A stretch of 64,000 bases of DNA from NCBI GenBank assembly GCA_905178155.1, contig CAJINV010000001.1, forward strand, positions 5,243,994 to 5,307,993, given 5' to 3'. Both the position numbers and the translations under genes were made by a program. The notes beneath the pieces were generated by a model that saw only the letters and a list, made by a program, of their open reading frames with translations, did not search any database and was not told the DNA's origin. Below are positions 13,564-46,549 of this stretch, piece by piece (positions within the stretch are counted from its first letter, which is position 1; each line of letters opens with the position of its first letter). The stretch comes from Amoebophrya sp. A120 (taxonomy: Eukaryota > Protista > Dinoflagellata).

Positions 13564-14528
13564 TCAGACAGCGGCGGCAGGTTCGCCTTCTCCGGCCTGG
13601 AATACTAGGAAAAAAGGTCATCATCTCACTTCACCCAAAAAATGCAAATAATTCCAAGTAAATCCGGAATGCAAGCGCTGGCTCCAAGCATATGCAGTAG
13701 AAGCGATTCCTCTACTTTTTTGCGGAGCGATTCCTTTTTCTTTGCAAAAGATTGTGCTGGAACATGCAAATTTTTCACTCGAGCCGAAGAAATTTGTTCG
13801 GGGTTGACAGTAGGACGAAAACCGGTCTCCATTTGGTAAAACGCCTGCCATTATCGCATCAAAGTCGATCGGCGTGAACGGAACATTCTGTCCCTTTGCC
13901 ATGCGTCCTGAAATGATGTTCATATGCGGGCTCTGGCCGTTTCGTGTCTGTCCACCTTTATTTCGGTTGTAAACTTCGAGGGCATCCGTAATCGTCATGT
14001 GATCATACTTCTTGTCCCGCGTCACCACCGGGGCTCCGCAAATCGTACCCTGAAATAAGTATATGATTGATTTGTATTTTGGAAACGCACCATGCAGCTA
14101 CGATTCATGCTTCCGAGTGGCACTGCGAGCCTGAGAGAGGTGCCTGAACTTCCGGGAAAAGTAGATGATAACGCCCACAGCAGTGGCTCGCTGCCCATAC
14201 TGAGTGATCAAGCGAGCGAGAAGCAGGACCAAAAGCAATGACCCGAATTCGAAACGATATATTTATGACCACAGCAACTAACCAAACGATCAGTAGAACC
14301 ATCGCAAATTTGCGAAAATTGAGCCGAAAAGCGGGTCTGCACCGAGCGGAAGCAATTGAGATATACCGCGTCAAGCTGCGCTCTTCCCGTTGCCTGGGCG
14401 ATGCGATCCCGAAACTCGCCAACCGTCATAGTATCAATGTTGATTTCTAGTTCTGTGCTAGCTCCGGCCGGCTTGATCTTCACTACGCGTCCTCCTGCTG
14501 GTCCGGAAGAGGACGCCGACGTGAGCAT
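13564..14528 (-). CDS. Ubiquitin-like (beta-grasp) small protein, family member 1, multi-exon
   Basis: VVKIKPAGASTELEINIDTMTVGEFRDRIAQATG resembles ubiquitin beta1-beta2-alpha1, and DHMTITDALEVYN resembles DGRTLSDYN. A GT-AG splice gives C-terminal DFDAIMAGAGEGEPAAAV*. Start and signal peptide are uncertain. Confidence 0.5.
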
Positions 14529-16412
14529 GAGCCCAATGACATCCCAGTCAAGAAACGCGATGAATCCAGCACAGAATTTGTATAAGTCTTGCTACGCCTC
14601 TCGGTAATAAGAGCATTCATCGTTGCGTGCACAATGGAAAATCAGCTCCTCACCTGGTGTACACTCGCTTGTCCTATCCATCTATTCTATTGGAAAATTT
14701 CTTCCAACTCAAGCGCAACATGCATCGGGCTCGGGCCAGGTACATGAACTAAAAAAGTGCGTTTCTGTGATGGACGCATCAGCATCAGATACACTGTGCG
14801 TACTGGGTCGTGGGAGCGAAACAGAGCAAAGCCGCACAGAAAAGCGCGAGCACCGCCTGTCGCAAGTAGCCTCGGAAAGCCTGCATCCCGTCGGTGTGTG
14901 TGGGTGTGTGGCCGAGGCGCTTCTCACGAAACCCGGATAGCTGGTGGAGGAGGAGGGAGATTGATTGTCCACAGAAAGGCTTCAAGGTGCAGGCTATTCG
15001 TCCACGCGCTGCGCCTGGTAGATTATACACAACTCCGCGATGGTGGAATTGCTGCGGTAATCACAAGGAGATAATGTACTGAATGGACGAATTTTAGAGA
15101 GAATGAACTTTAGTGGTGTGATACACAAAGCCGTACGTTTTGTTTTTGTTCAGGCTCGAATACGAGAGAATCTCAGAAGGAAGGCGGTCTTTTTCACCAG
15201 CAACGGCGTTGCTTGTCTGTAGTTGCCTCTGCTGGAGTTAGAATTCCACATTTCCCCGTGTTGCAAGCGAACAAAAGGCTATCGCATCTGTATCTTCTCA
15301 TGAATATGCAAGAGCATCAAGACGCGTCAAAACACAATGATGATGAAAATGAATTGTAACGATGAAGGCAGCGATCTTGCTAAGGAAGACGAGGATGATC
15401 GACGGTACCTGGATCTTCTTTCGGAAAAAACTAAGATCTCAGGAGCAGTAAGAGGACCAGGTCTTCTTTGTCTTTCAGTAAGTACACGTACACGTAGGTA
15501 CTGGAGAAAAAAAAACTTCTTTCTGATCCTGGATAGCGGGATCTTTTCCTGATTAATTCACTTACGAGAGAGGACTGATACCTGACCATGATCCTCATCC
15601 TCTAGCACTACTCGCTTCAATCAGACGTCGACCTCGTGGCAACGCACAGGCAGTTGCGACTGCCCACGAAAAAACAACCATAGGAAGGCACACGCTACGG
15701 CTACCTCCCAATGCCTATGAAACCATCTGCTCGTGGATCTTCGATGATGGCATTTTCCTACTCTTTATCATTTTGGTAGTTCCGAGTCGTCGAGCAGCCG
15801 GCGCAGCGAAAAAACCGTTCCTCCGGCCACGGACCGGCTGATCTCACAAAAACAGTGCTCCACACTGTATTACAATGCCAATGCGTACAGTTGCCACGTC
15901 TTTTTTCGAAAAAAGAACCGTTATCGATACTTATCCATAGACACGTGGCACTCGGTAGCTCTAAGTTTTCAACACCGTGCTGTCCTGTGAGCGCGTGCAC
16001 CAACGTGTCCAAGTGTTTCCATTATCCTCCCGGCTATCATATCCGACGAGAAGCAGAGACAAGTCCATACAACCTGCGAAATTATAATTATTTATTGTTG
16101 CACTAGGAGCATTAACTTGTCCGAGCAGCAGGTCAGCCTAGCTCCGCTGCATCGCAAAAATACCCGCTCGACAAGCTTCTTTTTCCCTATGCCTGCAAAA
16201 AGTGATCAAGAGCATGTCAAAAAAAAGGCAGAAGCTGGCGTCACTCAACTGGTTTCACTACAAGATTGACTGGCTCCTGGGTCTGCGAGCACAAACGCCC
16301 TTGTTGGGTTCAAGTATAACTCAAATTTGCAGACTGCCACCGGTAACAAATACCTTCTTTCCGATCCCGAGTCAGAATCACAGTCCTTGTCCGGATCTGT
16401 AAGCTGGCTACT

Positions 16413-19392
16413 TCACCCTTCCTGCTCAAACTGAAAGTCCGGGAGCGGCACCAGATCACCGTGCGGGAAGAGCGTGGCGAGTGGGCCCGAGTACTCCGCG
16501 GCTATGGTCATTTGCCGCTGCGCCTGTTCCGCCACGTTCCTCGCGGCGGGCGGCAGCTCATCGAGAAACCGGCCACTGGTGGCCGCCAGCATCCCCGTTG
16601 TTCGGATGAACTCCTCGATGCGCTTGTCGACCTCTGTCAGCTTCTCCGGGTCGCCGCGATGGCTGTCGCCGCCGTCCTCCTCCGCGTCCCCCGGTCCGCC
16701 CTCGTCAACATCCATCGGACCTTCATTGCCGGGCCCGGGAGACGAACCTCCCCCGGGAGAGGAACCTCCCCCTGCTGTGTTGCTGCCCCCGCCAGTTTCC
16801 TGAGTGTCGCCTCCCGGCGGACCAGCAGAGTCACCATTGTTTTCCTGAGTAGGTGGTTCTGGACCGCTGTGACCGTCGCCTGCAAAATTGTCAAGTAGGT
16901 AAATTGTCTTCATTTACGGTTGAAATTTTTCATCCGATTTCCACATGCGCACTTATCAATTTTCCATAAAATAATAACGAGTCGGGCTACAACGCTGGTG
17001 CTCTTCCAAATAAAGCGAGAGCGCGTCTCTGCGAACATTTGAACATGCCAAAATCAATCACGTAGATCTAGTTTGAGCTTCCGCTGCCGCCCCTACTGCC
17101 AGCTGGGTCCCTGTGAACTGCCTTAAGTACTGAAGTACCTCCGGCCACATTCGTGTTCGTGCTGTCTCCGCCAGCAGTGCCGGGTTGTCCTCCACCAGGG
17201 GCAGGGGGCGGCGACACCACGCTGTCCGTAGCAGGTACATCCCTCGGAGGTGAGCTTTCGCCCTCTCCCGGCTCGTCAACATCGTCATCATCGTCAGCCT
17301 CGTCGCCCGTGATTTCCTCGCCGGTTTCCTCGGTATACTCGTAAAATATTGTGTATCCAATAAGCTCCTTGTTCCGAAAGACATGTTTTATTTGCAAAGC
17401 CGGCTGATCCTGCATCAGTCTGCCACGAGCGCAGGAACGCTTGCAACTGCAAGTAGATTGACACGCAAGATGCAAGCACGAATGCAAAAGTATTGAAAAC
17501 ACAACTTTTTGTTTCTGCGTGGTACTCGTCCACAATAATCCAATCCTCACGCTCATCACTGTAGACCAGACGGGCGCGCCCCGAACTTCCGGAGGAAGAA
17601 ACAGCCATGCACATGGGCTGCGCTGCCGTTCCCGGCCGCGGCAGTTTCTGGCGGAATGGATCGATCAGCAAGCTGACAAGCTCCTTCTTCCGACTATTCA
17701 TACGACCCTGCGTTCTTGCACCACGCCGGGTACCACCACCCGCACCGCTGCGATCGGCGCGCAGAAATCCTGGTTGCCGCCGCGCGCTGCCGGGACGCCG
17801 CGCAAGCATCATCATCGGTCTCGCCCCGTCCCCGCCCTGGTGAGCTCCCGCATTTCGCGGACCAAGCAGTTCCCGCGCCAGCTGACGCAGCAAAAGTGCG
17901 AGATCGAGTACCTGGTAGATCTCGTGCTGCGAAAAACAATGTCCGCGCACGTGCGTGAAACCCGATAGCAGGACCGGAGACCGCAGGTTTTCCGCCCCCG
18001 GCTCGGTCGCCTGCGACGGATCGCGGAATTCGCCGTTCGGAAGCGAGAGAAGGCGGAGCGTGACCCGTGGAAGTAGCTCGCGCGTCGACGGCGCCCAGTG
18101 TGACACATGCCCTCTGCCGTACCACACATCCTGCCAGGCGGGAACGAGAAGCGACTCGAGCATGTCCAGCACGAAGGGAAACCAGGTGTTCCGCGTCCAC
18201 TCGTACTTCAACTTCTGGCTACGAGCGTCGGGGACGTCTGCTGGACGGACCATCATAATCGCCATGTAGTCGGGATTCTTCTCAATGTCGTCCTCCCACG
18301 AAGTGGTCTATCCCGGTGGGGAAAAAAACACATTTTTCCTTCCTGCTCCCGAACTCGGGCGGGCACTGGTGTCGTGATTATTTCAAACAGTTTTTATCAC
18401 AAGTGACGGTTGTCACCTGAGCATGTAGTGGAAGAACTTCTTCTGTCGTCAATTATGACACGAAACCCGATATTACTTCTTCATAAAAGGTGATAGAGAT
18501 TGGGCAAGCATCGGGCTATTTGAAATAAGTTAGTAGCCTGATGCTTGCCCAACCGCTCGTGATGACATCCATCAGCAAGACCGGAGCGCCGCTCCGGGAG
18601 CGGGAATTTCAAATGTGTAATTTTTCAAACTACATAAGAAGGCCGTCTGGTACAAGCGCTGGGCCGCTATCAGCTTTCGGACAGGCTGAATGTCTGTTGT
18701 GATGCTATCCTAACAAAAAAAGTATTTCTCAGCGACAGACAAAAAGTGGCCACGTGTAGACGTGTTCCTATCCAATCGAGGCTTGCATTTGCAGTTGTGC
18801 ATGCACGCTCTACAAATAAAAGCAACTGACACCGCGGAAGGAGATCACGGACAAACTGCAAGTGCGGGTCTTGATCTATCATGCTCACGTGGATAGAAAC
18901 TTGGGCTGCAAAAATGTAGACCTGATGCAATATTTTGTTAGCATAGGTCCCGGCCGAAGGGTCCCCTCGCTGATTAGTGGCGGCGAGGACCGCGTCTGCT
19001 GCTGGAACTGGTTGCACCATTCGTGTCACTGCGGCAAAAAGAAGGGCCAGGTCAGACTGAAAAAAGTGCATTTTCTGGCTGTCCGGAGCCATTCCGTGGT
19101 CGTGCCACTTGCTCGCGGCCTCCAGCACCGCCGTCGACGCCACGCGCTCCGGATTCGGACACAGCACTCCGGTCTCCGGGTTGGGTGCGACTCGGGCTTC
19201 CTCCACCTTTGCGAATGCGGCTTCCAGAATCTCCAAGCGAACCTGCATGGTGCCGCTGTCAGGACGACCAGGAGGCGCGGCAGGAACGGCGCCTGTGGCT
19301 GTGCCGAAAATGCTCGTCCGCAAATAACCAAAGCGGCTGGAGGCCTGGACGCCAACCGCGGCCGCGAAACACAACACCTCGCGGCTTCGCAT
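16413..19392 (-). CDS. Putative secreted hypothetical protein, multi-exon, with acidic and Gly/Pro-rich C-terminal segments
   Basis: N-terminus MRSREVLCFAAAVGVQASS. Long GC-rich ORFs at 18670-19431, 17294-18265, 17068-17340 and 16413-16913. No recognisable family. Confidence 0.5.
18500..18552. repeat. 19-bp inverted repeat (hairpin, 15-nt loop) in a probable intron
   Basis: ttgggcaagcatcgggcta ... tagcctgatgcttgcccaa, one mismatch. Confidence 0.85.
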
Positions 19393-21313
19393 TCTCGCTT
19401 TCTGCGATTGCCAGTTCTGGTCTGAAGGCACAGGAGGGGGCTCGAATCGATGCTGCGCCGCAAAGGTAGTGAAAATGAGTTGGGCTATGGAAAAATCTGC
19501 TCGCGACTTCGAAACGACGGATGAAGAATCGAGACCGACCTCGATGGATTGATTTTTAGATCGTATCTAAACAAGATTTAGACGGTCAGAAAGATATAGA
19601 TTCCTCGTGGTGGAAAAATGTCAATGTGCGGTTTTCTCTTCTACTTTACTCAATCAAGGAATTCTTCTACAATTGTAGGTAGTTGTTCACTGAAAGAACA
19701 ACTTGTGACACAGCAGGGAAATGAACTAGAAAAAGCTGCGTGGTTTGGGACTGAGTTGAATACACGACCTTGTGCCGGCATCATAAGGTATGGCAAGGCG
19801 ACAGCGAGTATCTATCAATCACAACTTGTTTCAACTGCATGCTCAACCGCCTAGCAGCCGGCGCTTCAACACACTGAGCTCCTCGACCCAGCTGATCTTG
19901 GTTATCGCAAAGCACCGCCACCGCTATGAACTTGTTACAGTTACGGTCTCGATGCTTACATAAGAAACTCACGAGATGGAGAGGAACGAACGCAACGCTA
20001 TGAAAGTACAACCATTGAGACCTCTACTTCCAGGGATCTTGAGGTGGATCTTGATCTTCTATGCGGAACTTGCACGAAAACAAAGCTCATCGATCCGGGA
20101 TCACGGCAGCAAGATCTCGGTTCGCCATCAGTCTAATAGGGTGTCTTCATAGTCACTACTTCTACTAACAACCGCACGTATACCACATCCTGCTTGTGGT
20201 GGCGAACTCTATAGCACATCTAGTTCTTGGCGAAAAGTGCAAACATTACAGAAAAAAGGGAAGCCATTACCATATCGGTATAATGATGCGAATCGCAACA
20301 AAGTCGTAGTTCGTTTTCAATAATGTCTTTCTCGTCTGATCTTCAACTGCCCGTGCTGGTGTGTAAGCAGCTTCAGCCTCGAGGGCCTGCGCTAAACGAG
20401 CACATAGTGACAAATCCGCACGCAGCTGAAGCAGCTGAATGGCGTCTTTTGACTTTTTCATTTTCTGTATGTACTTGCACAGCTTAAGTTCTGTGTTCAG
20501 GTCTCCATAACGTTGATTCTCTGCTGCGCCGCAATCGCAGTTGCAAAATACTGATCGTGGTTCGCGCGGGCAGGCTTCACTTTTTCTGCACGAACAGCCT
20601 TTCCTAATTGGCTAGCACACTGTCCAACCTACGTGATACATCGCAAAACTTACCAATGACCTTGTTGACGTCCACGCCTGTGAATGCATGAGTCAACGAC
20701 ACTCCGCAGAGAATGAGAAAAGCACATGCTCGTGTAGATATGCAAGCGGCCGAGGCCGATTCGACAAACGGCGCAGCTGTAATTTTTGCTCGTCATGAGG
20801 AACGCGTCGAGCTAGTAAAGACTCATGCAAGCGCAGGCCTCTTGTCATTGTCATTTCATTACTGCATTCTCATCTATCATATGGACCTCGCCAGCCAACA
20901 GATTCGCGCCGTACCCGTATGCTCGTAAAGCCGATCTGCAATTTCACATCTTGGACTCAGAATTCGTCTGGGAAGTTGAGATCGCTTTTGAAATGGTGCT
21001 TTTCTTTATCAAGCCGAAAATGGAACTGCCACCCCTCCGCAATCTCCGAGTCACCACGAAAAATTTTGCGGACATCAAAAGTTGTTACTCTGTCTTACTT
21101 CAAGGTTGCACGGGGGGCCGCCGTATCTCCCCACCCTTTCTCATGCGCTTTTCTTTGCTTAATACGCAATAGTCCTGCTTCACGGGCCGGGTACACATCA
21201 TGACCTTGAGCGTGTCCAGCTCTCAGGAGTGAGGGGCGGCAAATACGATACATATTTTCTCTTGCGGGTCTGCACATGACAATGCACGATCTAGAGAGCA
21301 GGATGAGGTGGGG

Positions 21314-23504
21314 TTACATATCTTCGTGTTGATAAATGGCCATTTCCCCAACAGCTCTCCAATACGACGCGTCTGCCTTCTCCCCTGCTGCCTCTGCTCC
21401 TGAGGCGATCCACCTGAAGATGTTCTTCGTATGCCGAGAGTAAAGGAAAGTTGCCAGCTGCTCTTTGCAGTGGAGGGTGCCAGTCTACGACCAAAAATTC
21501 ACCATAATTTAAGAATATGTCACTCTCACGACTTCGAGCTTGATTCAATGTGATCGAGCAGGGTGGCATAAGAGTCCTGGTTGAAATCGCAATTCTATGT
21601 ACCTGCGCCACAGTCTCTGCGCCTCAGGATCGTAGGGGGTGTCGACAGTCCCGGCGTCAGGGTGCACCAAGAATTCCCACAAGCGGTCAATCCAGCCGTG
21701 GAGAGAGTAATGCTGGCACTATCCCATGCAAACATGCGTGTGATGGAACTCGTTCCGAGAGCCAACTTAGACTTTAATCGGCCAAAACAACAAAGTTTCA
21801 GTGATGGCTTGCAACCTTTAGTCGGACCGCTGTAAATGGAAAACTTTCGACTTTCACCACAGCAGATACATACTTACTCCTAGTTGTATCTGTTTTTCAG
21901 TAAAAGTAACAAGGTCATCCAAAAACGAATGGCGTCTTGGGGCGCTTTTCGATGTCGCACTCGCACACTTGCGAGCCTGGTAGGCCATGCGCAGAAGTAC
22001 TACTACAAGATCGTTGCACCGGATAGCCAATTACCCTCGGAAATCTTGAAACAGCACCTCCCGCCTGTTTTGTAGGATGAGCGCTTTCCTACCGATGTAC
22101 TCAAGGAAGAAGACACATGCCATCGTGTCATATTATGGTAAAAATTTCTAACTCAGAAGCCTTGCACACTGGGGCTTGAATGAGGCAAATCCATTCCTGG
22201 CTCAGAAAGCTAACTAGTGCAGGACTCATCATGCGGCCGTCCACAAAACAGTTTGCTACAACACTACTCCCTAGCTGGATTAGAGTTAGTATCAATCTTA
22301 CTGGTGCCGCTGTTGTTTATGTGTGCGTGGAACGTCTTGAATTTTGCATAAGCCTGGGGCTGCTCCGGGAGGCGGACCTGCAACGCGTTCGGATCCTTGT
22401 AAATATTCCAGCCTTCAGGCACCGAAAACCCATCCGGAATCATTATCTTGAAGTGCTGTAAAGGCAGTAGTGGCACATTCATTGCAGGGTGGAGAAAAGT
22501 CAGTCTACGCAAGCTCAAAAGAAAAATGCTATAGTATTTCTACTCCGTGCGGACCATGACGATATTCATTTTCTGCATCATCTGCAACCCCGCAGCGGGA
22601 AAAAAGCAAGCTGAAGTCATCGCTATTCAAAGGTACAAACATGTTCCTGCGTGCATCAGTGAGTCCGTGCAAACCTTTATACCATCAACAGTCCGTGGTA
22701 GTTTTGATAAGGGAAGCTGTGTGTCGTCGAGAAGGTCTTCTGGTCGGGCAGGAAGTCTACCAACAAATTTCCGTCATCCGTGACTTTGGCATGGAGCGCT
22801 ATGCATTCGCAAAACTATCATGACACCACGCCTGGGCATACACACGCTGCAACAATTTCTAATGATCCATCAGCACCTTCAATACAAGCAGACAGAGCAA
22901 ATCTGCAGCTGTTGCCAAGTATTTATATATAGAAAAGGAAAACTGGCACGTTGACCGTGACAGCGCCAGGTTCCAACATGTGAGATTGTTTTGCCCCTGA
23001 TAAATTCGGGCTCGTCACCATTGTCCCACTGCGCATTGATGTAACCTTCCACCCAACGCTCCAAGGCGGCCTGTATTTTCAATATTTTTTCTTCAACGGG
23101 TGGATATCATATTCATAGATACCGATCGTTGCAATTAGGAAAACAAAGTCCAACGTCGACGAGCAAGATGTGCTAGTGTAAGTATGTCTGTCACTCACGA
23201 ACAGGAATTCACGAGAAGCAGCATGTGGAAGCAAAGCAGCTGCGAAAATGGCTGTGCAACGCTTGGATCAACAGACCTTCCAGACGTAAGAATTACTATT
23301 CAAAAGGACGTCAGAATTACTATTCAAAATAGTTATGACTTCCATTGCATCATCTACAACAAAGTTCCACCATGCCATGTTGCAGTATCAAATTGAACAC
23401 ACTCACACTTACTGTACCTTTTTGTCTCCGTCCCCGCCGCGAAGAGTGACCGCCAAGGTTTGCGCCGCAAGGCAGCACGCCAAAAACAGGGTCTGCTTCA
23501 TCAT
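21314..23504 (-). CDS. Signal-peptide-bearing divergent E2 (UBC-fold) protein, paralog A, multi-exon
   Basis: Signal peptide MMKQTLFLACCLAAQTLA. Exons: ALERWVEGY..EPEF; VTDDGNLLVDFLPDQ..YQNYHG; FKIMIPDGFSVPEGW..QPQAYAKFKTFHAHINN; HYSLHGWIDRLWEFLVHPDAGTVDTPYDPEAQRLWR; ..SYWRAVGEMA. The exon carrying the catalytic Cys was not resolved. Confidence 0.65.
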
Positions 23505-25474
23505 CCTTGTCGGCTGAGAACCGTGGTTTGGACTGGACCACAATGGTATCCTCGGATACGGACGCGCCGGAGATGCGTGAGTAGAAAAGAAGTGGCGCAA
23601 TACAAGACGCCTGCTTTCGCTTGGGTTTGCCGATTCGTAGATCTTCTACTTCGAACCGATGGTCAATGTGTTTCACGAATACACGTCACGAATACACGCG
23701 CAAGAACTTGCTCTGGTATCGTAAAACCTTTAGAGGGATCAGCGGAAGGATTTTTTTCGAAATGTATGTATTCTTTATTTCTGTTTTGTATCTAAGTTGC
23801 GAACTAGAGTGTCGTCCAGCTGCTGTCTTTACTCTGATGAGGATGTACAGAGCCTCCAAACCTGATTTGCCTGAAAATCGTTATGGAATGAGATGTCCAC
23901 CGGGTGCCTGCATGATCAGTACGGTTGAAACAGAAAACGAGGGATCCGTGCCCGGAAGGAAGAAACAGCACAGTGAGCACATGAAAAGGATCCTATGCCA
24001 TCTTCACCTCTATCATCAAGAAAACCACGCGACGCCAGCAGTGGATCGTTCTTCTTTGCAAAAACGTCGAGCCCTTTATTGCTGGCTTCCCAACGCATCT
24101 CCTGAACTTCTAAAAAGAACGCACAGTGGCACAGCATGGATTGTGGTGATGTTGTAGGTCTACGACACAAGAAACGGATCATCTTTCAGTCCCAAATCGA
24201 GAGGAGCCACGCACACAGCGCTGATCTTCCGCTGACCATAGCGGTTTGATCTTCCGTTAGGACGAGCGAGAGCGTGGTCTTTCAGCACAGTTACAACACT
24301 TCAGGCTCGATCCAGATCCACTTTGGCAGACTACATCAATATGAACTTGCGACTACCCATCAGATCCTCTTTCTAGGGACGCCATTCCTCGTGTCTGAAG
24401 ATTTCATATAACAACCGTCAGCTCACCTTGGGAATGGATCTGCGTGCCTTCGCTGCTGGTCTTCTTGTCTTGTGAACCAGGATCCCAAGACATCAAAGCG
24501 CAAAAAAAAGTTCCGGTACGAGCGAACTCGGATCCAGTGAACAGTCTCCCTCGGCCAGTACTCCAGGACTGACGGTTCTACTTATTCGTCCACGCAAAGT
24601 CGTGGACCAATCGTGTACAAACAAACGAAAGGCAAAGTACATTGTCCACGTAAATCTACCGAATAATTACCACCGCGCTGCAGTCGACTAGCGGCAGCTG
24701 AGGGAAGAGTAAAATTCAGTGAAAGTAGATAGAAATTGTATACTATTAGTTGTAGAACAAAGTGAAAACATTGTATATCATTGGCGCGCCATCAACCCGT
24801 CCTCAGTTCTTTTTAGGCGCCAAGTTTTAGCAGCGTCTCTGAACGAGCATGTGCGCACGTGTGAAACGTTTCTCGCGAACGGACTGCTGACGCCCCAGAG
24901 ACGGTACGTACCAGTACTGGTTCGTTGTCGTGAACCAGCCATCATCTTACAGAAAATTCCATGCCGGACCTGATAGTGGCGCCCGACGGAAACTCGATCT
25001 CCTCGCCGAATTACATCAAATTTCAGGATAATTCAACAACCTCTGGACCTGAACCAGAAGCTGGATAGAAATAGAAAAGCCTCCTGCTGCTCCGCATGAG
25101 AAACGAACTCAATTCAGAGGGGCAGGCTCCGTCGATGCCCGGACAGACAAGTAAGTGCAGTTACCTCTTCCGTGCGCAGAGGACAGAAGAAGTGAAACAA
25201 TATATAATTCGAAGACAGAGTGATGTGCCGCAGCCGTGCTCGTCTCGCGACCGCGCTACTCGATCGTGTCCGTGAACCTCAGGTCTTTCCTGTAGCGATT
25301 TGCAATGCAAAAATGTCTGAGTCTGGAAAAGTGAAGAGTTTGTCACGCAGGGCTTGCATGCCCCAGAAGGTTTGGAATGCAAAGTTTCAGTTTCTTTGCA
25401 ACGCCACCCAGCATGACAAATTGTCTCTCTGCGTGGGCAAGAGGGGAACGGAAGCGGAACGAAGCTCTTACTGC

Positions 25475-33191: not shown

Positions 33192-34612
33192 GGTGTTGCC
33201 GTTGCCGCGCCGATTGCATGGAGAGGCTGCCATCTGGGTGCGATTGAAGGTTACTGCGCCAGGACGAAAGCCTGCGACTCCAACACTACGACTAGCTATT
33301 GCCAGCAAAACGAGATCGTCTGGTCCTGGTACTTCGCATTCACTGTACTTAAACGCCGTATACTCTACAACCCCTAGTAGAAAATAGTAAGAGACTGACA
33401 CTGAGAACGAATATGGAGATAGAGGTGGAGCTCGCGCCCGCGACTACGTACGGACATACCTGCAAGAACGTGCAGTCGTACGCAAGGAAGAAAACTGCAA
33501 AGGAGCAGCTTGCAAGGTAAGCAGTGGATCATGCCTCGCGAACGTGATCACCGGACCTTGTCGAAGCGAACTCGACTTTCACGGATCTCCCTCCGGGACC
33601 ACACCGTTTTCTTCTGGATCTTCGGGTCAAAGGATCGACTTTCCATAGTGTCATGATCACAACGAACAGCAGATGATACTAGTCGTGTCTCTATTTCTGC
33701 CTCGAAACAAAACGCAAGCGAAGACGGGAGTCGCCGGGTTCGGGGTGCAACTGAATAAATAAAAGAAGCAGCCATTTTCCAGCGCGTAAACCTACTTGTT
33801 TGATAGGGTCCTTCTCCTTCGATATAAAGAAAGCATAAACGAGCGACCTCATGATCTTTATCAAAGATTCCAAGGAGCAGGCAATCACCACACCAACCTG
33901 CTTGCCAATTTCTTCTGCGACGCAAACTGTTGCGGTTGTCTAGCAGATGATAAACCTTCGTTCCAACTTATTTCAATCCGTGTGCCAGTGCTCCTGGCAG
34001 ACAAGGTAATCGTAATATTGACGATACTAGGGTAAAGCGCAGACCTGGCCACGTAAGAAGCGGCAACGGGTAGAAAGTTTGCTAGTACGCCTTATTTTCG
34101 TTGTAGTAAACTACTTAATTCAGTGATCCCGCTCGGGCGTCCATCTTTGCCCGCTCTTTGCCTTCCACCTCCTCGATGTTGTATTTGTATTGCGCAGGCC
34201 TCGCGGTTCAAGCGCTAGGGCGCGGTTCGGAGCCGTACCACAGCTCCAGCGACGGCAGATCCCTGTCACCGAACCTCTCGTACTGCATAGCATACCTTCG
34301 CAGCTCCCGAGCGGACGTCCACCACGCCGGCTCCGCGGTGCTCTCTTCGTCCGGACTCGCGAGGGACTTCATCGTCATCCCACCTGCCTCGACCTTGATT
34401 TTGCTTTCCAACAGCATCTGAGTCGTCTCATGTCTTGCGGTTATCCAGTGGAAAATGTCTATCGCCATCGGTCCAACACCATTTCCATTCCTGCTGCCAC
34501 TCAAAAATGCACGATGCGCATCTATGTGTAAAGCTCAAATTAAAGCTTGCGACTCAAACCCGAATTTGCAACTACGTTTTGAAGCAGGTATACCGATTGA
34601 AAAAGACGCATA

Positions 34613-37600
34613 TCATGCAACAACCATAAATGCATAAATCAATATTTTCCAATGAACCGGCCAATGCAAGCTACTATGAATCGGAAGAGCGAGAGACGTT
34701 GACCACAGGATAGCGTGCTGAACGATGTCCCGAAGCGTCGTCTTCAGCGAAAATCCCCGACGAGTCCATTCCTTGCGCAGACGGCCCACTTGCGTCCGCA
34801 CGATGTCCTCGAGCTTCACCGCGGCACGGTCCCCGGAGCCTCCGGACGGCCCGGCCAAAAAGCCACCGCCCCCCTTCGGAGGCCCAGCCGACGCCGCCGG
34901 GTCGGACCAGCCCGACTGCGCGACGGCGTCGATATTGGCCTGTTCCCACGCAGGGTCATTGTATTCGGGGAACGCGCCAATTTGCTGCAGCAATTCGGCT
35001 CGGACGTCCTCGCGGGAGAACGACGCAACCGGAGCCCGCTGTCCATCGCTCGCGGTCATGCCGGGCGGCGCCGGAGCGCCAGGGACGTCCTTCTTCGGAC
35101 CCACTTTCTGCGACAGGCTCCGCTCGATCTGCCGATACAGGTTCAGCGTCGTCTTCAACATCGGGGCGCACACATCGATTGCACCTTCCACCGTGTCGCC
35201 GCCAGCAGGCGCCCCGGTTTCCAGTCGGGATGTGCCTTCGGTAAACCAGCGGTTCCGGACGCTCTCTGCTCCGCGCATAAAATCCACAGCGACCGCCTTC
35301 AACGATGTAAGTCCTCTGGAGGTTTTGCGCTCCAGACTCCGCTGTTGTCCCGGAGACGTACCACCTTGCTTCGGGCTGTCGGGCCGCACCACTGTCTCCA
35401 GCGCGTGACCAATGAGCTCTGCAAGGAGCGCATTCCCGCCTGTGCTTGGCGAGTGAGTCAGCAAAATTTCGCGACAAAACTCTCTAGTGCCGTCGTAGAG
35501 CGTGAGATACTGCGGTATCTTTTCGTCTACCTGCCCCTGCAGGATGTCGCCTTTCTTCACGAAGTACCCCAACCGCACTTGCCATTTGAAAATCCGAATG
35601 GCCAAGTACTCCCGCGCCCACTGCAGTACTCCGCCGAGCGTGGTGGCCGGCACCCGGGCGGTTTCCCAGACTCCCCATTCATCCGCCGTGGCTTCGATGC
35701 TGGCTCGTGATTGGTAGAAGTGCCCCATGTCACTCGACGACGGATTCGCGAGCGTCTTCAGGTCAACCGTATGAGAGTGCACAACTCCCCCTCCCCCTTA
35801 TTTGGATGGCATCCGCAGCAACACAACTCCTGGCACAGATGCAGCTATTGAAGGACAAATTTACGACTGATTGTAGTGGCGATTCGGCTTTGGGAATCTG
35901 TCATGCGAGCAGTGCCACAGAGCAAAGAGTGGATTTGGTATTTTGCATCACAAATGAGGGGGACGAGGGGGGCGAGTTGTGCACTGCCATAAACCGCCTC
36001 GTCGAAACAGTGAACTTTATTTGCACCGCACTTCCGGCGCTTTCTCGCCTGCATCGAACCATCTTCAGACCGATCATACGCCTCTTGGAGCTGCTTTTGC
36101 ACCGTCTTGAACACCTGGATCATGGCTACGCCTGTTGCAGCTGCGGTCACAGCGATCGACGCCGCCCCGATGCGACCGGCAATGCGGGAAACAGCTGCCT
36201 TCTGCATACGCGGGATCTGGTGATTCCGCGCGCGCAGGTTGGCAGCAGAGTACACAAAATCAAGGTGGCTCCACTGATCTTTATCATACTCGAATTTCGC
36301 CACTTCGTCTGAGGACGGCGGTTCCGCAGCGGTGTCCTCCTCGCCCAGCATCGCAGTCAGCCCCCTGACTAACTCGCGGATCCGCAGGAGTGCGGCATCA
36401 TCGGCCGCGCCCGACTCCATTGGCTCCTGCTGCATCGCCTGGGGAGACCAGGGTTTCACGGTCAGACCTGCCGTGCCCCCAACATACTGGAGTGGACGAC
36501 CATGATCGTCAACCACGGCTTCCAAGCTGGGATCAAGTTCGGTCGCCGCCACACGCTGTGGACCTTTCGTTGTGCCGCCGGTCGTCGTGACCGACGACTT
36601 CGCTTTCGAGGACGCCGCCCATTTCGTGCGCTCGCGCAACATGCTCGCTGCCAGCCGAGCCAACAACTGCTTGTGAATCGCCGCGTTGCTCCGGACATAG
36701 GCAGCATGCGTGGAGTCCTCGTGCAGCTGCAGGCCTTCTTGGAAGCTCGGGAATTTGCGTTTCTCGTGAAAAAAGGGCGTGCCATCATCTTCGACCTTGT
36801 CCCGCGGGTACCGGCGTTGCAGGTCGCGCACGGCGTCGTGGAAGTGCAGCCAGAACAGCTGCACGGACAGTTCGGCCGACACGCGTCCGACAAAGCCGTC
36901 GAGTTCCGCGTCCGAAATCAGCGGAGACGTCTCCAACGCGGTCCACAAAGCCACAATCGCCTCGATCCGGAACAATTCTTCACGGCGGCGCGCGAAGTCC
37001 AAGTCGCGCGCCTGGGTTGCGGCCTTCAGCTGCCGCCGCAGGTCCTTCATCGTCACGGGAAATTCGTTGAAAGAGCGTTCGAACACCTCCCGGGCCCAGT
37101 GAACGCAGTCGGCGGCCGTTCGCGGAAACTGCCGCAACTGGCACGCGCGCACATTCGGATCCGGTGCGCCCTTGCTCGCGGAGGACTTCCAGAAGTTGAG
37201 CACCGCAACTTTCCCCTCGTAACTGGAACCCGGCGTTCTCTCGAACCGTTTTGCGTTTCGCCGCAACGACGCGAACTCTGGGGTCTCGTGCCCAACTCCA
37301 GCAGAATCGACCGTAGCAAACACGTCTTCCAGCGCCCCCAGCTTTTCCGCCATCACCGCAGGCGTGTGCGGTCCCCCGTCAGAGAAGTAGGTCCGCACGG
37401 TACTGCCACTCACCGAAAGTACCTCGTGCAGGTACTGCGGAAATTGGCTGTCGCTGGTCCAGTCGTGCCACTTCCAGCAGTTGGTGTGGTAGAGCTGGTA
37501 CATCAAGGTCTTGCCGCTCAAGAGGATCACTGGCTTCCCCTGATGCATGTTCGTAAAGTAGCTATACAGGCTCTGCTGTTGCTTGTTTGTGCATGCACTT

Positions 37601-40600
37601 TCTATTTTGAATCAAAAAATGCGGCGGTTTCGGAAAGAATCAAAACAACTACATGCTCGCGTGAGACAGGCTGTTGTTGATGTTGCTCTGGCGTGACGTG
37701 CAAAGAGTGCAGCCATGAGAATGATTATGATAGATTGATAAGCAAATAAGTAAAAACTACCTCATCGTCCAGCTCGTTCAGAGGCTGATCGGTCGGCAGA
37801 AACGTGACTTGCACTGCAAACGCTTGCGAGGTATCGTCCCCAGCTCCGGTCTCCGTAAGACCATCTTTTCGGTCCCGGAAAGTGGACACAAAAGGGTAGA
37901 TCACGCCAGTCTCGCCGCTGATGCGTGTGCTAGTTCCACAGTTCACAAATGGAATCTGGCAGCGCATGCACATATCCTCAATGTAATACCGCCCGTCCCA
38001 CGTATCCAAAGCGGAGAGCACAACGTCGGTCGACTTCCACTTGGGGAGCAGCCGAGCTGTAGTCTCCGGACAGACCTGACAGTTGTAGTAGTTTAACGCA
38101 TGCAAAATCTCCACGCAGATCGCTACTACCTCCGTAGGAGCTCCGCTGAAAAGACTCAGAGGAATTGCGAAATCAGGCATTTTCAATCAGAACGTAAAGA
38201 GGGAGCAATGCCATCCTGCACTCAATCTCAAGCGTCGCGGTGCTCTAATTGCAATTTATTTCTGTCTGTAGAAGCGAAGGTCGAGAAATTAGAACCACCA
38301 TCAATCAAATAAAGTTTAACTACGTATGCTTGAACGGCTTCATAGCCGATCTCGGGCCAATGCTCGGCCAACGCGTTTCCTGCCACTACCGCCTTGGGCT
38401 GGTTCCAATGATGCGCACGAAAAAGCAGCTGGCGGCTGAGGTTGGACACCTCAATGACATCCGGGTCGAGTAGCACCAGCTTTCCGCCTTTGTCTTTGCG
38501 GGGAAACCCCATGGTCGCCAAGGTCTTCACGTATTCATTTCCGACGGCGCCCACCCCCGGTAGAAGAAAGCGCGTCCGCTGGAGTCGGTCGAGCAGGGCG
38601 TCTCCGAAGAGATAGAGAACGTCCCCCGAGCGCTGATCTTTCCAAGCGTCACAAGTCTGTGGCCCGCTGGTCATGCCACCCAGGTACAGTTCGGTGTCGG
38701 TGTGCGACCGCTTTGAAGAGCGCGAGCGCGGAGCAAAGGTTGCGTCTGCACGTGCTGGTGACGGGGGGCGACAACCGAAGAGCTGCCGCAAGGTGCGCAA
38801 CACGTTTTCTTCGGTCAGAACCGTAAGAAATTGGGCATGCATGAACCCTTCGAGCGGTACTCCCGCTTGCCTCTGCCCCGCAATTTTGGCTATTTCCTGA
38901 GCTACCACGCCAGCCAATACGGCCGACACTGGTAAGAATTCGACTTCTTCCTGAGCAAAGTAAGTCGCCAGAATCAAAGACAGAGGCCACTTCTGGAGAT
39001 CAGATTGCGCACTGGGGCTCGGATCCGCGATCGTGACGGAGACCGTCCCGGGATTTTCCTGAGAGGACCCGCCCGCCGGCGGCGTGGCGTCTGCATCGTC
39101 CTTCCGATCCTGAGACGTTGGCGAATTCAAGTTGGAAAAAGCCTCCACCGGTTCCACGCGAAAGCCACAAGCATCTGCGGCCCCACCCAAATCGGACGTC
39201 TGTGATTCGAACATCTCACGGCGCAGTACTGGTCGAAGCGTACTCTGCCGTGCGGCTTCGCGGAGGATGTCAAAGCAGACCTTCTCTACTTCTGACGCGG
39301 AATAATTATTCAGTCTCGCGGCGTTGTTCATCGCGTGGCGCCGCAACAGCTCGAGTCGATCTTCACCTGGAAAATTGATGTAGATCTAGAAGATTCTCTT
39401 ATATTTAGTGACTGCAACACAAGTGAATATTGTTTACAGAATCTCTTCTGCGTGCAAATGTGGATGCAGACTTTAAGTTCTTCTTCTGGTTTAATTGATC
39501 GCACATCACAATCAAGTGTGCTGCAGCGACGAACCCTAACGAAGAAACTAGCTTTTCTCCTCCTCATGTCCATCACACGACCAATCATACATAGTTGTAA
39601 ATCTCTCATATTGGAGTTCTTACGTGTTGAGTTGGAGCTGATCAGAACTGGATCTGTTGCTGTACCAGCTTCGCCGACGGCTACGCCGGCGCTAGCGGTC
39701 AAGGTGGCCATGAGAGAGCTGTGAATCGAAACTTCGTCCGCCGCGTCCGAGAGGTCCGTCAGGTCATCCAAGCTATCCGGAGCTTCCGCGGCCTCGGAAA
39801 TGCGCTTCGCCTGCGTGTACACAACACGCGGCCATTTCTGGCGGAACGTTCCGCCCACAAGCGTCGGTGGCAGCGGCTCGTGAAAGGTGACGAACCGATT
39901 ATCCTTGTCTACTTTCGCCACGTAGAACCGCTTCGTTTTCAGGCTCTCCGCCCCATCGGTGTTTGTACTTTCGACGTCTTCAAACTCAATCCAGGGGGCG
40001 TTCGGACCGTTGCGCTCGGCTGCTGCAACCTGCTGCAGATCGTGGCTCTCCATGGACCCACCTACGAGCTCCTCCGGTTCAGGAGGCAGGTAATGGATCC
40101 GTCCCCCTTGCACCTTCTCTATCTGAAAGGTCGCATCGAGCTTATCTCTCGCCTCCATAGAGTAGGCCTTCCCAGGATCCTGAAAGATCGAAGCGAAGAG
40201 TCCCTGCGAGCGCGCGTACAAAAAGCGAAAATTTTTTCCCGCCATCGAGGCTTCGTCACGATTTGCATCACGGTCAAGCCCTGGATGCTGCTCTTCCTCT
40301 TCGTTTGGCGGTTTGGACAACATATCGACGTCCCCGTCCGCATCAGGCATTTGCGATTTTGCTGCAGCAACGACGACTTCGTTCCACCGTTGCAGCTGTG
40401 GTAGATCAAGTCCCGGGTGGGTCGCAATGACGACTTTGCTGCTCCCCGGACCATCCAGCCAAGAGGGCAAAAATTCGGTCTCGACCGCACTTGCAGCATG
40501 AGCGACGATGCTTACCCGACAGCGCGGGTTCAACTCCTGCAGTCGCGCTGCCACGATGCCGTCGCAAAAAACCTGGTACCGCGAACCGGACACGCCGGGG

Positions 40601-41184
40601 TCGACCGAGGAGCGCGCAGAGACGTGCTCCACGACGGTTTCTTCCCCGGAGATCTCCCCGCGCGGCGCGGAGCCAGCACGGCTACTTTGCAAAAAAGACA
40701 AAGCCGCTGGTAACTGGTTGCACATCAGCCCGAAGCAACGGCTCGTCAACGACGACTGCCGGGACCCCGAGAGAGAGGGCATGGACCGAGGGGACGTTGC
40801 CGCCCCGCGGGACATCACAGCTGCGCTCGACTCCGGTGGTAGAAACTGATTCAAGCCGAAGTCGTGGGCTTGCATGGGGGCCGTCGGCTCGGGCTCCACC
40901 AGCGTTAGAGTCGCACATCCCTGCAGCATCGCATTTTTTGCTGTCTCGAAAGCAAGCCCGTTCGTCCCGATGATGGCGATGTGCGTCCGCTGCAGCGATT
41001 CCGTAGCCGCTCGGCCGAGCATTGCATTTTGCCGGGAGAAAAGGTCACTTTCCTCCAGCTGGGCCTGCTGCTGCGGCACCACTCCCGCAGCCGCCGCCGC
41101 GAGCGCCGACCGACCCACGTGCAGCAGCACACAGGCGCCGATGGCGGCGCGTACCCGGAGGAATCGAGATGGAAAATCTGGCAT
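34613..41184 (-). CDS. UBA1: UBA1-type E1 ubiquitin-activating enzyme with an N-terminal signal-peptide-like segment, multi-exon, with large insertions
   Basis: Inactive adenylation half: LFSRQNAMLG..HIAIIGTNGLAFETAKNAMLQG..RLQELNP. Active half: LPGVGAVGNE..DPDVIEVSNLSRQLLFR..PKA; DVVLSALDTWDGRYYIE..C..P..NCGT. Catalytic Cys: PDPNVRACQLRQFP..CVHWAREVFE. C-terminal FEYDKD..HLDFVYSAANLRA..IAGRI. N-terminus MPDFPSRFLRVRAAIGACVLLHVGRSALA. GT-AG intron at 39367-39665. Confidence 0.9.
35776..35985 (-). mobile_element. Inverted-repeat-bounded (introner-like) non-canonical intron in the E1 gene
   Basis: Left end agtgcacaactccccctcccccttatttggatg versus reverse complement of the right end agtgcacaactcgcccccctcgtccccctcatttgtgatg. 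It lies exactly where the E1 reading frame shifts (EAVYG to SHTVDL). Confidence 0.7.
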
Positions 41185-42516: not shown

Positions 42517-43513
42517 TCAGTCGCGTGACACCCCTCCGCGCTGCTGTGCAACTTGCTCGTCGAGGTCTCTGTCTGGCGGCTCATCTCCTTCGCCTGCAGC
42601 TGCTAGGGCGTCGTCGAAGTTCCTGTATTTCAAGATAGGTAGAAGCGGATTGTAGAGCTCATGCACCACCAACCCGCAGCAGGCCGAAAATGAATACCTA
42701 GTTGATCCATACTTTTTCCAGTGCCTGGCACCGCCTTTTAAGACCTGCAGCGAGAGGTACACCGGCTTCATCGAAAACTTCTCGTGGTTATGCAAAAGCA
42801 AATGCCGCTCACCTGAATACACGCGCCTCTTGCATATACATTTACATACGACAATCAAATAAGGGATTACGAAGTAAGTATGTGCAGTACACAATGATGG
42901 GCGCGAGTTTTCCTTGGCTTTGCCACTTCCTCACCACTTGCGACAGTCCCGGGTGTGAGTTCATGTGGCTTTGGATCGTGCGGCTCAAGTCGGTCCTAAT
43001 GCTGTAAAACTTCCCAGTCTGATGATCGTATAAAAACGGCTGACCTGCGATCGTAGCCCTGCGTTGCAAAAATGTAGCCATCTAATTTATGTATCATCAG
43101 AAAAGAATCCGGCAGTCGCTCCCGGCTGAAAAGAGATGATCACGAGCCCAAAAAACCCAAAACCAACACTCATGCTATAAGGGAAGATACTTAGATTCTG
43201 AATTTCTACTTACCCATGCATGGCACACAAACACAGCCACCATCAGTGCTCAGCAAAAGCATCACGAAGATCTTCCGAAAAATAAACGGTACCGCATGTA
43301 GAAGCTGTTCCGCTTCGTACTGCCCTTTGCGTCCGCTTCTGCGCATAACCAGTTATACACCTCTTGCATCGTTCCGGATTCGAAGCTGAAGCTCTTCTGA
43401 GAAGCAATAAAACCGCCTGCTTTGAACGTAATCGTGGTCGCGCTTGCGAGTCCACAGTACGGTAGGAGCATGAATAACATGCGCAAGACCGTCCCATAGC
43501 ATCGGCCGCACAT
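42517..43513 (-). CDS. Secreted ubiquitin-like small protein, family member 3, ending in RGG plus a 4-residue tail
   Basis: Signal peptide MCGRCYGTVLRMLFMLLPYCGLASA. TTITFKAGGFIASQKSFSFESGTMQEVYNWL; RTDLSRTIQSHM; RNFDDALAAAGEGDEPP..QQRGGVSRD*. Confidence 0.5.
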
Positions 43514-44749
43514 CGTGATCGTGTTGCGGTTAGCTTTCGTAAAGTGGAACCTTGCGTTGTGAACCGAAGTCGTGTGTTCCCCCGTGGGGGCGTCGGTGAA
43601 TGTACTACAGCAAAGAACAACAATTTTGATGTACTTTTTCAACCTCTGGCGGCGGCATCTGTAGCCAAAAGAATCTTTGTCTTTTTCTAGCGTGCTTGAA
43701 ACAGACGGGACGACCTACTGCAGTGGTCGCAGCTGCCTAGATTATCTGTTTACTCGTTTTTGGGCCCGTGTCTCAGGTCGCGATCCTGCTTTACTAAATA
43801 TCACGACACTCGATGAAAAAGCGCCAGTGACGAAACCGTCTAAGTCGACGAACAACATCCAACATCAAGCTGCTCCGAGGCGTCACAGAAATCATCCGAG
43901 AAAAAGTAAAAGACCTATGATCAAGTGGATCCAAATAAAGCCGAACTGCTTATGGTATTCATTTTGTGGAGCATGCTTACCTCCGCAGCGTAGAACTAGA
44001 AGCTAGCAGAATCAAAAAAAATCAGAGGCAAAAAGATCCAGCGCTTTTCTGACCACTGACAGACGAAAGATCTACGTCCGAGGAGTCCAGCCTAATCGTC
44101 GATCACCAAGAGATCTTTTTGTTTTGCGTACTCGCAGAGCCAGAGCCGCACACCATAAGATGAGGGTCCAACGAACCAATGCGGCAGCGAACTTCAGAAT
44201 CAACCCATCAGAAGAAGCTAAACAACTATCAACTTGTAGATCATGAGCATTGCAGCCTTGAATTGCGATTATCGCTTAATATCGTTTCGTCCACGGAGAA
44301 GCACTGTGCTCGTCTCAAGAACCCGGTGACGCCGCTCGTCATCTCGCGTTGCTCGCATTTTTTCTTCGTTTCGCGGGTTCACGAGGCGCGGGACGAACTG
44401 TCGACTTTAGAAAATAGAGGATTTGATTTTGTGGCCCTCTTTCGCAGCGATCTCTCACCAATATTAACGCGTTTCGGTTTTTTATATTGCATTTCTTTTC
44501 TGTATCACTTGCTGCAACTTGCAACAAGTGGTGTGGTATTCTTTTCAAATCATACTTATGGCCATTACCGTGGCAAGTCCTGTGCCTATCCACAGCACAG
44601 TCGAAAAACCCTTCCATACGCTTTTCGTGCCTTGTAGAACTTATTGGAGAAAGAGTAGTGGCATGCACACGCAGCATCAACCTTCCTCCGACTTCTGTTT
44701 CCAATTCCTCACTATTGCACGCCCGCGCATGACAGTTCGAGCAACCTCG

Positions 44750-46549
44750 CTAGGCCGGTTCCTCGCGCCTACGCTTCCCGGCTGGTGCGCGCAGTTCCTC
44801 TGCCACCCCTTCCAAAGCAGCGGCAATCGAGTCGTTGTGATTCCTGTTTTCGTCAATGTGAAAATGAACGTGGACTGTCCGTCCTGAGCGGTGGGTCCCG
44901 AGTCGTGATCGAGATCGTTTGTGTTATGGTTCCTCGAAGTATATCATCATGAATATTTTTTCTTTTTTAACAAGTAGGATATGTGTAAACTATGATGCGA
45001 TGGGCTTGAAAATAGCGTTTCTACAAGGAAAAGTAAAAGCAAAAGCTCAAGGTCCTCGATCATAGAAAACAAATTAGTACACGATGAGGATAGGCGGCAT
45101 CTTTCCCCCTCTAAAGTTGCTGACGACCGGTGCTAGCTGCCGTTCCCTTTCCATGTGCTGCTTTATGGTCAGACTCAGGTCGGTTTTCAGGTGGGCGTTG
45201 TCGTGTCCACATGAAACGCACTAATGCCCACAAGATTCACATACTCACAAAAGTTGCCCCTTTCTCTGTAATGCCTTCCGTGAGGATCCGACGGGTGGAG
45301 CTGATTGATCACACCCAAGTGATCGACATTCGTCGTACCATCTATGATTACTACGCTGACAGTGACATTCACACCAAAAAGTACACATACATACCAAAGA
45401 AGCAGTACTAAGAGAAAGCAGAATGAAAGCATGATCAATCAGAGATCAGTGCGCTTTCCAGAATGATAAAACTCCGATAGTGTTGGGGTCGAACAGAAAC
45501 GGCGCTCCGCGGCACGTCACGCTGAATTATGAGCAGTTGCGATTATTATATGTCTTGACTCCTTTTCCACGACAAGTTCAACTCCAACAGAGAATGAAAG
45601 CATGCGTTGTATAGACAAAAAAAACAACTCAGACAACAGAAATTTCATATCTTACGACAAAAAAAATCCGTTGGCTTTATCCTGTGTAAGAACGTCCCCG
45701 CGATAGAGCCATCAAGGTGCAACCTTTACGAAACAGATCCAGAAGTTGGGCGCGTTTTCAGCGACAAACCTGGCCTCATACATTCATAGTGTACTGACGG
45801 GTTGGTCGTCTTTTCCATATACAGAGCCAGTTGCATATTGTGGTTCGAGCATATACAGATTCCCTCCTTTGTACAGGACTACGACTAGCACGTTTCTGCT
45901 ATGGGGAGACGCCGTTCTCAACATGTAAGATCTGCACGACAAATCAGCTCAGAGATTGGGACGTCCTTATATTACATAGTTCCTGGTGGTCTGGCGCGTG
46001 GCGAGTTGCCGCTCCACCTCCCCTTTGATCCACTGGAAAACCTCCCCCATGGCAATATCGTCGAAAAACCTTGGACTGCTGCGAGCCGTTTACTACCTAG
46101 TCTTGTTGCGAGCGCACACACTACACCTAGGGAGAGTCCCGTGAGGACAGGTGCTAGGCGGCAGTGCTTCATGAAGTACTCCAGCCGCCCTTCCCCGTGC
46201 TGCATCGCCGATTTTGAATCAAGATGCACGACACAGTACCGGTGAAAATGGCAGTCTGTACAAATAGAAATACCAAATCTCTTCTCCCATAAATCTTCAT
46301 CCGATGCAAATACACGAAGTACCGTTCGGCAAATCATGACCCTTACAAGAGAACATAGTAAGCTCAGACGCCCAGCAGTATTTCTCTCGTTCGATACGTG
46401 TTGGTTTCGTAAATGAAGGTCTCCTCAGGTTTCGCCGCGAGAAAGCCGCCGCCGATGAATTTGATCGGTGTCGCACACACGCCTGGCACCTGCTCGTGGA
46501 GCATCGCAAGGATGACCGACGGCAGGAGCTTCTTCAAGAGGGCCCGCAT
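44750..46549 (-). CDS. Secreted ubiquitin-like small protein, family member 4, multi-exon
   Basis: Signal peptide MRALLKKLLPSVILAMLHEQVPGVCA. TPIKFIGGGFLAAKPEETFIYE; FFDDIAMGEVFQWIKGEV; NRNHNDSIAAALEG..KRRREEPA*. Closest to member 3. Confidence 0.45.

Follow-up and report, generated by a model that had tools for sequence, protein, structure and literature searches.

We identified, in a 64-kb window of the genome of Amoebophrya sp. A120 (the whole stretch of DNA that was analysed; positions are counted within it), a 33-kb block on one strand comprising four genes for small proteins of predicted ubiquitin-like (Ubl) fold, M1–M4, one gene for a ubiquitin-activating enzyme (E1) and three for predicted ubiquitin-conjugating enzymes (E2A, E2B and E2C) (Table 1). 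The available text of PMC9478091 describes A120 as a Syndiniales parasite of the dinoflagellate Scrippsiella that crosses the cytosol of its host and grows in the host nucleus. The window is eukaryotic; its introns measure 130–460 nt and many are non-canonical. A sequence-only reading of this DNA had placed four Ubl-like genes on both sides of the E1, between 13564 and 46549. These limits are exact, running from the end of the M1 stop codon to the ATG of M4, and M1 and M2 lie downstream, M3 and M4 upstream, of the E1 gene. That reading left out the three E2 genes and the signal-peptide-like N-termini (leaders), which change what the locus is. Overall, we regard the small proteins as a real and apparently undescribed family of predicted ubiquitin-fold precursors within a clustered, leader-bearing E1–E2 set.

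Exon joints were taken from contigs of two runs that we guessed to be RNA (none is recorded as RNA), aligned to 11.5–47 kb; run X5 gave a single piece over 11.5–31.3 kb with no joints. One M2 joint was seen in two raw RNA reads, and the raw-read runs X8 and X9 yielded 2 and 0 reads, too few to gauge expression level. The contigs join the exons of each of M1–M4, bearing out the single transcripts on which the sequence-only proposal depended, and the joined reading frames match database proteins P0002, P0004, P0001 and P0003, respectively, stops included, in all four cases. The database gene models are transcript-based, according to the text available of PMC7789003, and may draw on the same data, so the match does not count as independent confirmation.

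Table 1. Genes of the Ubl–E1–E2 block, with positions in the 64-kb window.
Feature	Position	Strand	Characteristics
M1 (P0002, 164 aa, 4 exons)	13564..14886	-	signal-peptide-like N-terminus, Ser-rich linker, predicted beta-grasp domain, tail DFDAIMAG + 10 aa
Spliced gene, unknown family	15782..19392 (lower end approximate)	-	signal-peptide-like N-terminus; from contig pieces and hydropathy
E2A (P0005, 231 aa)	20957..23504	-	contig joints; HAH replacing HPN, Cys145, signal-peptide-like N-terminus; 53% identical to E2B
E2B (P0006, 233 aa)	25256..27186	-	HPN intact, Cys154, signal-peptide-like N-terminus
E2C (P0007, 263 aa in database model, start uncertain)	28524..30372	-	HPH, Cys164, hydrophobic stretch near N-terminus; 34% identical to E2A
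M2 (P0004, 166 aa, 4 exons)	31679..33233	-	signal-peptide-like N-terminus, family domain, tail HDDHIAAG + 20 aa
E1 (P0009), single-chain UBA1/6/7-type	34208..41184	-	signal-peptide-like N-terminus, GxGxxG, SNLSRQ, LDTWDGR, catalytic Cys1106, large insertions
M3 (P0001, 164 aa, 3 exons)	42517..43513	-	signal-peptide-like N-terminus, predicted beta-grasp domain, tail NFDDALAAAG + 24 aa ending QRGGVSRD
M4 (P0003, 168 aa, 6 exons including a 17-nt microexon)	44750..46549	-	signal-peptide-like N-terminus, family domain, tail NHNDSIAAALEG + 18 aa; 44% identical to M3

The folds of M1 and M3 were modelled with AlphaFold2 on alignments of 4–5 rows, some of them shared by the two models; M2 and M4 are assigned the fold by homology. 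The M1 model has a predicted local distance difference test (pLDDT) score of 74 (69–74 over five models) and the M3 model one of 67 (45–67). Both have the same order of elements (strand, strand, helix, strand, strand, helix, helix, strand, helix), with a short last strand in M3, and are predicted to be beta-grasp domains in which two additional helices precede the last strand; a beta-grasp is the fold on which the sequence-only reading had rested its case. The best Foldseek rows for M1 are the NLE1 UBL domain (E 0.0066, probability 0.97), PB1, the USP7 Ubl domain, NEDD8, SUMO1 and ISG15. For M3, 31 of the 48 listed rows name ubiquitin or SUMO. A second-look aligner, its list taken from Foldseek's own matches, superposed M1 on ISG15 with Z 6.5 and a root-mean-square deviation (rmsd) of 2.4 Å over 71 residues, and M3 on the UBX domain of FAF1 with Z 6.6 and 2.1 Å over 69 residues; compact targets overall gave Z 6.5–6.8 and rmsd 2.1–2.8 Å over about 70 residues. 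The second-look lists, of 50 rows each, consist of ubiquitin-fold domains by title, except for FERM, PI3K, PB1 and pre-60S rows, which we take to be ubiquitin-fold domains too; the list for M3 is headed by UBX, PI3K and a membrane-anchored ubiquitin-fold protein in complex with an E2. M1, which had been proposed as the member most like ubiquitin, is indeed somewhat closer to ubiquitin-like modifiers than M3 (14–17% identity, top structural rows).

Pairwise comparison linked the small proteins to different degrees. The scores of M3–M4 (206) and M2–M3 (70) each beat all 2000 shuffles, and the numbers of shuffles scoring as high, again out of 2000, were 22 for M2–M4, 33 for M1–M3, 844 for M1–M2 and 1654 for M1–M4. 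In leave-one-out profile tests M2, M3, M4 and P0008, a fifth A120 paralog encoded on another contig, exceeded all scored shuffles. M2, M3 and M4 have in common a phase-2 intron that immediately precedes the residue four places upstream of an invariant Gly, and the last intron is also common to M3 and M4; M1 has an intron 1 nt off the position common to M2–M4. Based on the shuffle tests and intron positions, M2–M4 are one family at the sequence level and M1 is a probable distant member. The proposed family of four is therefore upheld for M2–M4 by sequence and gene structure, and M1 belongs to it through fold, motifs and the near-matching intron alone. P0008 is 58% identical to M4 overall, has no D..AA segment and ends in a di-Gly plus three residues; its neighbourhood could be a place for more of the system.

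The C-terminal motif by which the four proteins had first been grouped was overstated. Specifically, [NF].D.[ILM]AA[AG]..GE.EP occurs in none of the four proteins, its first half in one and GE.{1,2}EP in two; GE.EP is absent from M2 and M4. The C-termini quoted in its support were correct only in part, as that of M1 reads DFDAIMAGVAGEGEP, from which a Val had been dropped, and the GEP ascribed to M2 lies out of frame past the stop and is absent from the protein. A relaxed pattern, D.[ILM][AM]A[AG], picked post hoc after the data had been seen, is found in all four, with a six-frame count of 4, whereas 60 shuffles averaged 0.42 and never exceeded 2. Two internal motifs had been reported in three proteins each. 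The helix motif F.[FY]E..M.[EK]V..W[IL] is literally present in one protein and, with a spacer of 2–3, in three of the four; D[LH].[MR]TI is literally present in two and, loosened to D.{2,3}TI, in all four and in P0008, as is G.[PD][FV][LV]. It had also been stated that only one protein has a di-Gly: three have one somewhere, and M3 alone has one near its C-terminal end.

No Pfam family matched M1–M4 or P0008 (the best hit, EF-hand_13 at E 0.11, was disregarded), the family profile gave 5 matches to PDB sequences (E 0.08–1.2), none of them ubiquitin-like, and the Atlas held no usable match for M3. Searching 1.84 billion representatives with the family profile returned 4 matches, all from A120, and word searches with the family and the E2s returned the window's own proteins only; neither result is proof of absence from A25 or other strains. 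We detected no family matches in DNA scans of viral contigs and prokaryote genomes. One locus from a metagenome DNA scan, L001, was rejected as a GC-rich, bacterial-looking open reading frame (ORF) with just a short word in common. Ubiquitin-like rows in a viral fold library appeared at E 0.015 or weaker only, and a special viral link is not indicated. By sequence, the homologues found all come from A120; the alignments are shallow and the proteins fast-evolving, so absence in other strains is not implied.

The E1, encoded between M2 and M3, has Pfam ThiF and SCCH domains and the following features of a canonical single-chain E1: two ThiF-type repeats, the ATP motifs and an SCCH domain with the catalytic Cys. 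Its best PDB matches are UBA6, UBA7 and UBA1 (E 5e-42 to 7e-28), its nucleotide-binding and catalytic motifs are kept (Table 1), and Cys1106 aligns with the catalytic Cys of UBA6 and UBA1. The protein is heavily inserted and 27–29% identical to two ordinary UBA1 proteins; its length is 1915 aa in the database and 1901 aa by the contig joints, with 14 extra residues at one junction. The segment opposite the ubiquitin-binding VNLALP stretch of UBA1 is altered in an alignment made by eye. Pfam gave no match to a C-terminal ubiquitin-fold domain, the part of such E1s that recruits the E2; a stretch beyond residue 1500 can be aligned loosely with the corresponding part of the two UBA1 proteins.

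The three E2 genes, between M1 and M2, are paralogous (34–53% identical). The catalytic Cys is present in all three proteins and the HPN motif is intact in one (HAH in E2A, HPN in E2B, HPH in E2C). E2B matches Pfam UQ_con at E 0.0067, under the cutoff, and its Atlas model has template modelling (TM) scores of 0.66–0.74 to UQ_con clusters, with 26 of 30 feature hits being UQ_con. When the E2 profile was compared with the PDB, the top 5 matches were WD40 repeats, rejected as summed weak repeats, and 16 of the 17 remaining matches were E2 or UBC entries (E 0.06–0.95). We predict that the three are divergent E2s of the UBC fold, E2A and E2C by homology. As a lead only, E2s without HPN include ones that modify non-lysine acceptors (PMC9527308, in the text available).

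In a type I modifier, a C-terminal Gly is expected roughly five residues beyond the last strand, either already exposed or freed by processing. At the range ends of the structural alignments, residue 107 of M1 falls on residue 154 of ISG15 and residue 108 of M3 on residue 152; against E1-bound ISG15, the M1 range ends with 113 on 157. The first Gly after the last strand (IMAG in M1, AAAG in M3) is at +2 from Gly157 of ISG15 in both models, a register that is arithmetic from the range ends and good to about one residue. That position would suit the suggestion, in the sequence-only reading, of cognate modifiers cleaved at a Gly outside a di-Gly. The Gly spacing of M2 equals that of M3. Family similarity stops at the single Gly, beyond which the tails vary over 2–24 residues and are often acidic. 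Such unconserved tails are typical of precursors. The QRGG of M3 was set aside as a processing site, being 28 residues beyond the last strand and without an equivalent in M1, M2 or M4.

Leaders were scored by the 9-residue hydropathy peak after Lys/Arg in the first 40 residues. All nine genes scored in 13.5–46.5 kb, and P0008, peak at 2.27–2.92; M2 was scored from its second Met (residue 15), which is a likelier start than the first. As controls, four other ORFs of the window ranged from -0.22 to 1.12, and the values for two ordinary UBA1 proteins were 1.46 and 1.87. The control ORFs without leaders include, on the - strand, a phosphoribosyltransferase-like gene (54947-55843) and a class I/II aminotransferase (57233-59266). 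The typical layout is a basic residue and a hydrophobic core (at residue 28 of the database model in E2C), followed in most proteins immediately by the folded domain, which by eye begins within about a dozen residues of the leader in 7 of 8 proteins; M1 has a 15-residue Ser-rich linker. C-terminal KDEL-type signals are not evident. The hydrophobic N-termini might instead be membrane anchors or unused, with the cascade working in the parasite cytosol or on the surface of the endoplasmic reticulum (ER). Such an arrangement would have ATP and reducing conditions at hand and would suit the database models of M2 and E2C, which begin upstream of the hydrophobic stretch, and the leaders are read from hydropathy; it seems to us very improbable, given that eight N-termini, unrelated or diverged, repeat the pattern of a basic residue, a short hydrophobic core and small residues before the domain, and that the leaders of M4 and P0008 are identical at 25 of 26 residues in proteins whose domains are 58% identical overall.

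Our favoured interpretation, to which we give slightly better than even chances, is a private E1–E2–Ubl cascade that enters the secretory pathway and whose precursors are cut back to a single Gly. Joint work away from the parasite cytosol is the simplest account because the E1, the E2s and the beta-grasp precursors are adjacent, all bear leaders and all are far diverged from their cytosolic counterparts. The small proteins would be the modifiers, entering the secretory pathway as beta-grasp precursors with the neighbouring E1 and E2s. Their leaders would be removed in the ER, and a protease would trim the unconserved acidic tail to the single Gly after D-x-[ILM]-x-A. The E1 would then adenylate the trimmed end and hand the modifier from Cys1106 to an E2. 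Transfer to targets would occur outside the parasite cytosol. Thioester chemistry needs ATP and a reducing space, for which the host cytosol or nucleus, the setting in which this strain grows, is the most plausible place, or else a periplastid-like compartment. We speculate that the two E2s without HPN may take non-lysine acceptors and may dispense with a ubiquitin ligase (E3). A bolder version, in which A120 injects a complete orthogonal Ubl system (its own E1, three E2s and four to five single-Gly modifiers) into the host cytosol or nucleus and so attaches tags unreadable by host deubiquitinases, is conceivable but on balance doubtful; it would represent a eukaryotic effector cascade of a kind that we have not found described.

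Several observations weigh against the private cascade. No Foldseek match for M1 or M3 reached E 0.001, the Z values are middling, and Z < 8 can reflect a common arrangement. M1 was folded using an alignment of other family members, and against the profile of the other four it is not significant (81 of 1000 shuffles equal or better). Signal peptides were judged by hydropathy alone, and like leaders are shown by three M35-like genes (1.91–2.53) and by a gene at 62–63 kb (1.99); because neighbouring M35-like genes carry them too, the leaders may mark a general secreted-gene block. The ER lumen is oxidising, which disfavours thioester chemistry, so a further export step must be assumed. At the C-terminus, M4 has its first Gly two residues beyond the place seen in M2 and M3, the models show the tail segment as a helix of low confidence (pLDDT 36–65), and a di-Gly in ubiquitin register occurs in none of the four window proteins, although single-Gly modifiers need none. 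Finally, neither an E3 nor a protease belonging to a known deconjugase class was identified within the window.

Three of these points, the missing in-register di-Gly, the helical tail of both models and the lack of an identified protease, together with the UBX, PI3K and E2-bound membrane-anchored rows that top the M3 list, would suit small proteins that are never conjugated. They would then be beta-grasp effectors or adaptors (similar to UBX, Hub1 or the membrane-anchored ubiquitin-fold proteins to which E2s bind), and the exported E1 and E2s would use host ubiquitin or another modifier. We consider this unlikely, because both models place a Gly about 2 residues from the ubiquitin-like terminus, the tails past that Gly are unconserved (with GG + 3 residues at the end of P0008) and the E1 counterpart of the UBA1 ubiquitin-binding stretch is altered.

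For a private cascade in the secretory pathway, the nearest precedent is the symbiont-specific ER-associated degradation-like machinery (SELMA) of apicomplexans, diatoms and haptophytes, a system of related lineage in which the E1 (s_Uba1), E2 (s_Ubc/E2AP) and Ubl (PUBL) have secretory leaders. In the passages available of PMC12412216 and PMC5487736, SELMA is the sole known alveolate system that sends E1, E2 and Ubl alike into the secretory pathway; C-terminal extensions occur in some PUBLs. It is in keeping with this that the A120 cluster might be a diverged SELMA relic (s_Uba1, s_Ubc, PUBL) that either still works for a cryptic compartment of plastid origin or was put to new use once the plastid was lost, which we judge decidedly unlikely. 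SELMA serves plastid import via bipartite leaders, whereas A120 is reported, in the text available of PMC7789003, to be aplastidic and without plastid functions and SELMA; its leaders look simple, and in 7 of 8 proteins there appears, by eye, to be no room for a transit peptide between leader and domain. Proteins as divergent as these could have been missed by Farhat's search. PUBL aligns to ubiquitin by sequence, and ubiquitin can stand in for the Toxoplasma protein, which depends on its terminal di-Gly (PMC5487736, in the part concerned); in contrast, the A120 modifiers are 4–5 paralogs without sequence match to ubiquitin, M1–M4 lack any Pfam match, and their genes are clustered. The passages of PMC12412216 that describe leader-bearing s_Uba1, s_Ubc and PUBL make no mention of Amoebophrya or Syndiniales. 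A SELMA-derived cluster would give a first molecular sign, in Syndiniales, of the plastid import machinery that was lost.

UFM1, ATG8 and ATG12 are single-Gly modifiers. Like these, and like UBA7–ISG15, the proposed A120 cascade would have a beta-grasp precursor trimmed to Gly and its own E1 and E2. Those systems are cytosolic and unlinked, and UFM1 and ATG8 use non-canonical E1s, unlike the single-chain UBA1/6/7 type in A120. In bacterial Bil/Bub operons, E1, E2 and Ubl genes are adjacent as one unit (PMC11601596, in the text available), but these are prokaryotic, cytosolic and antiphage, and the operon includes a protease; the A120 genes are spliced and leader-bearing, with no protease identified. 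The cyst nematode effectors GrUBCEP12 and RHA1B, a ubiquitin precursor with a C-terminal extension and an E3, respectively, are exported into host cells but employ true ubiquitin and host enzymes, and the available text of PMC6461251 does not describe E1 or E2s of their own. The main text of PMC7789003, in the portion available, does not mention ubiquitin, and that of PMC6176090 reports ubiquitin-pathway genes up early in Amoebophrya infection, with signal peptides and secretion unmentioned. In a literature search that left most subscription journals outside its range, we found nothing on Amoebophrya, ubiquitin and signal peptides combined and, by title and start of abstract, no comparable E1–E2–Ubl cluster.

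Known parasite effectors borrow the host E1 and E2, and the sole known secretory-pathway E1–E2–Ubl set serves a plastid. A clustered, export-like set in a plastid-less intranuclear parasite would, if true, add new ubiquitin-like modifiers. It would also be an operon-like functional cluster in a genome whose gene order reportedly does not track function (available text of PMC7789003), and a concrete candidate for takeover of the host nucleus by a bloom-controlling parasite, for which parasite genes are not identified in the text available of PMC9478091.

Among the neighbouring genes, three paralogous M35 aspzincin-like metalloprotease genes lie directly downstream of M1 on the - strand (59-982, about 3650-4860 and about 10500-12240), with intact HExxH and signal-peptide-like starts. 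From their sequences, these proteases are candidates for tail trimming, or may be independent secreted enzymes. Inside the cluster, the spliced gene between M1 and E2A encodes a hydrophobic leader and a C-terminal half that is acidic and of low complexity; those of its exons that were scanned matched nothing in Pfam or among PDB sequences, and it could be a candidate for the E3 or protease of the cascade. Database gene numbering skips one between M3 and M4, implying a further annotated gene at 43600-44700. The E1 intron at 35765-35991 is non-canonical and introner-like, with 25-nt inverted arms at its ends and loose contig ends. The ends of the E2B intron at 25294-25572 recur at a very large number of other sites in the DNA run, and an inverted-repeat element is found at 2458-2745; both are likely to represent an introner element.

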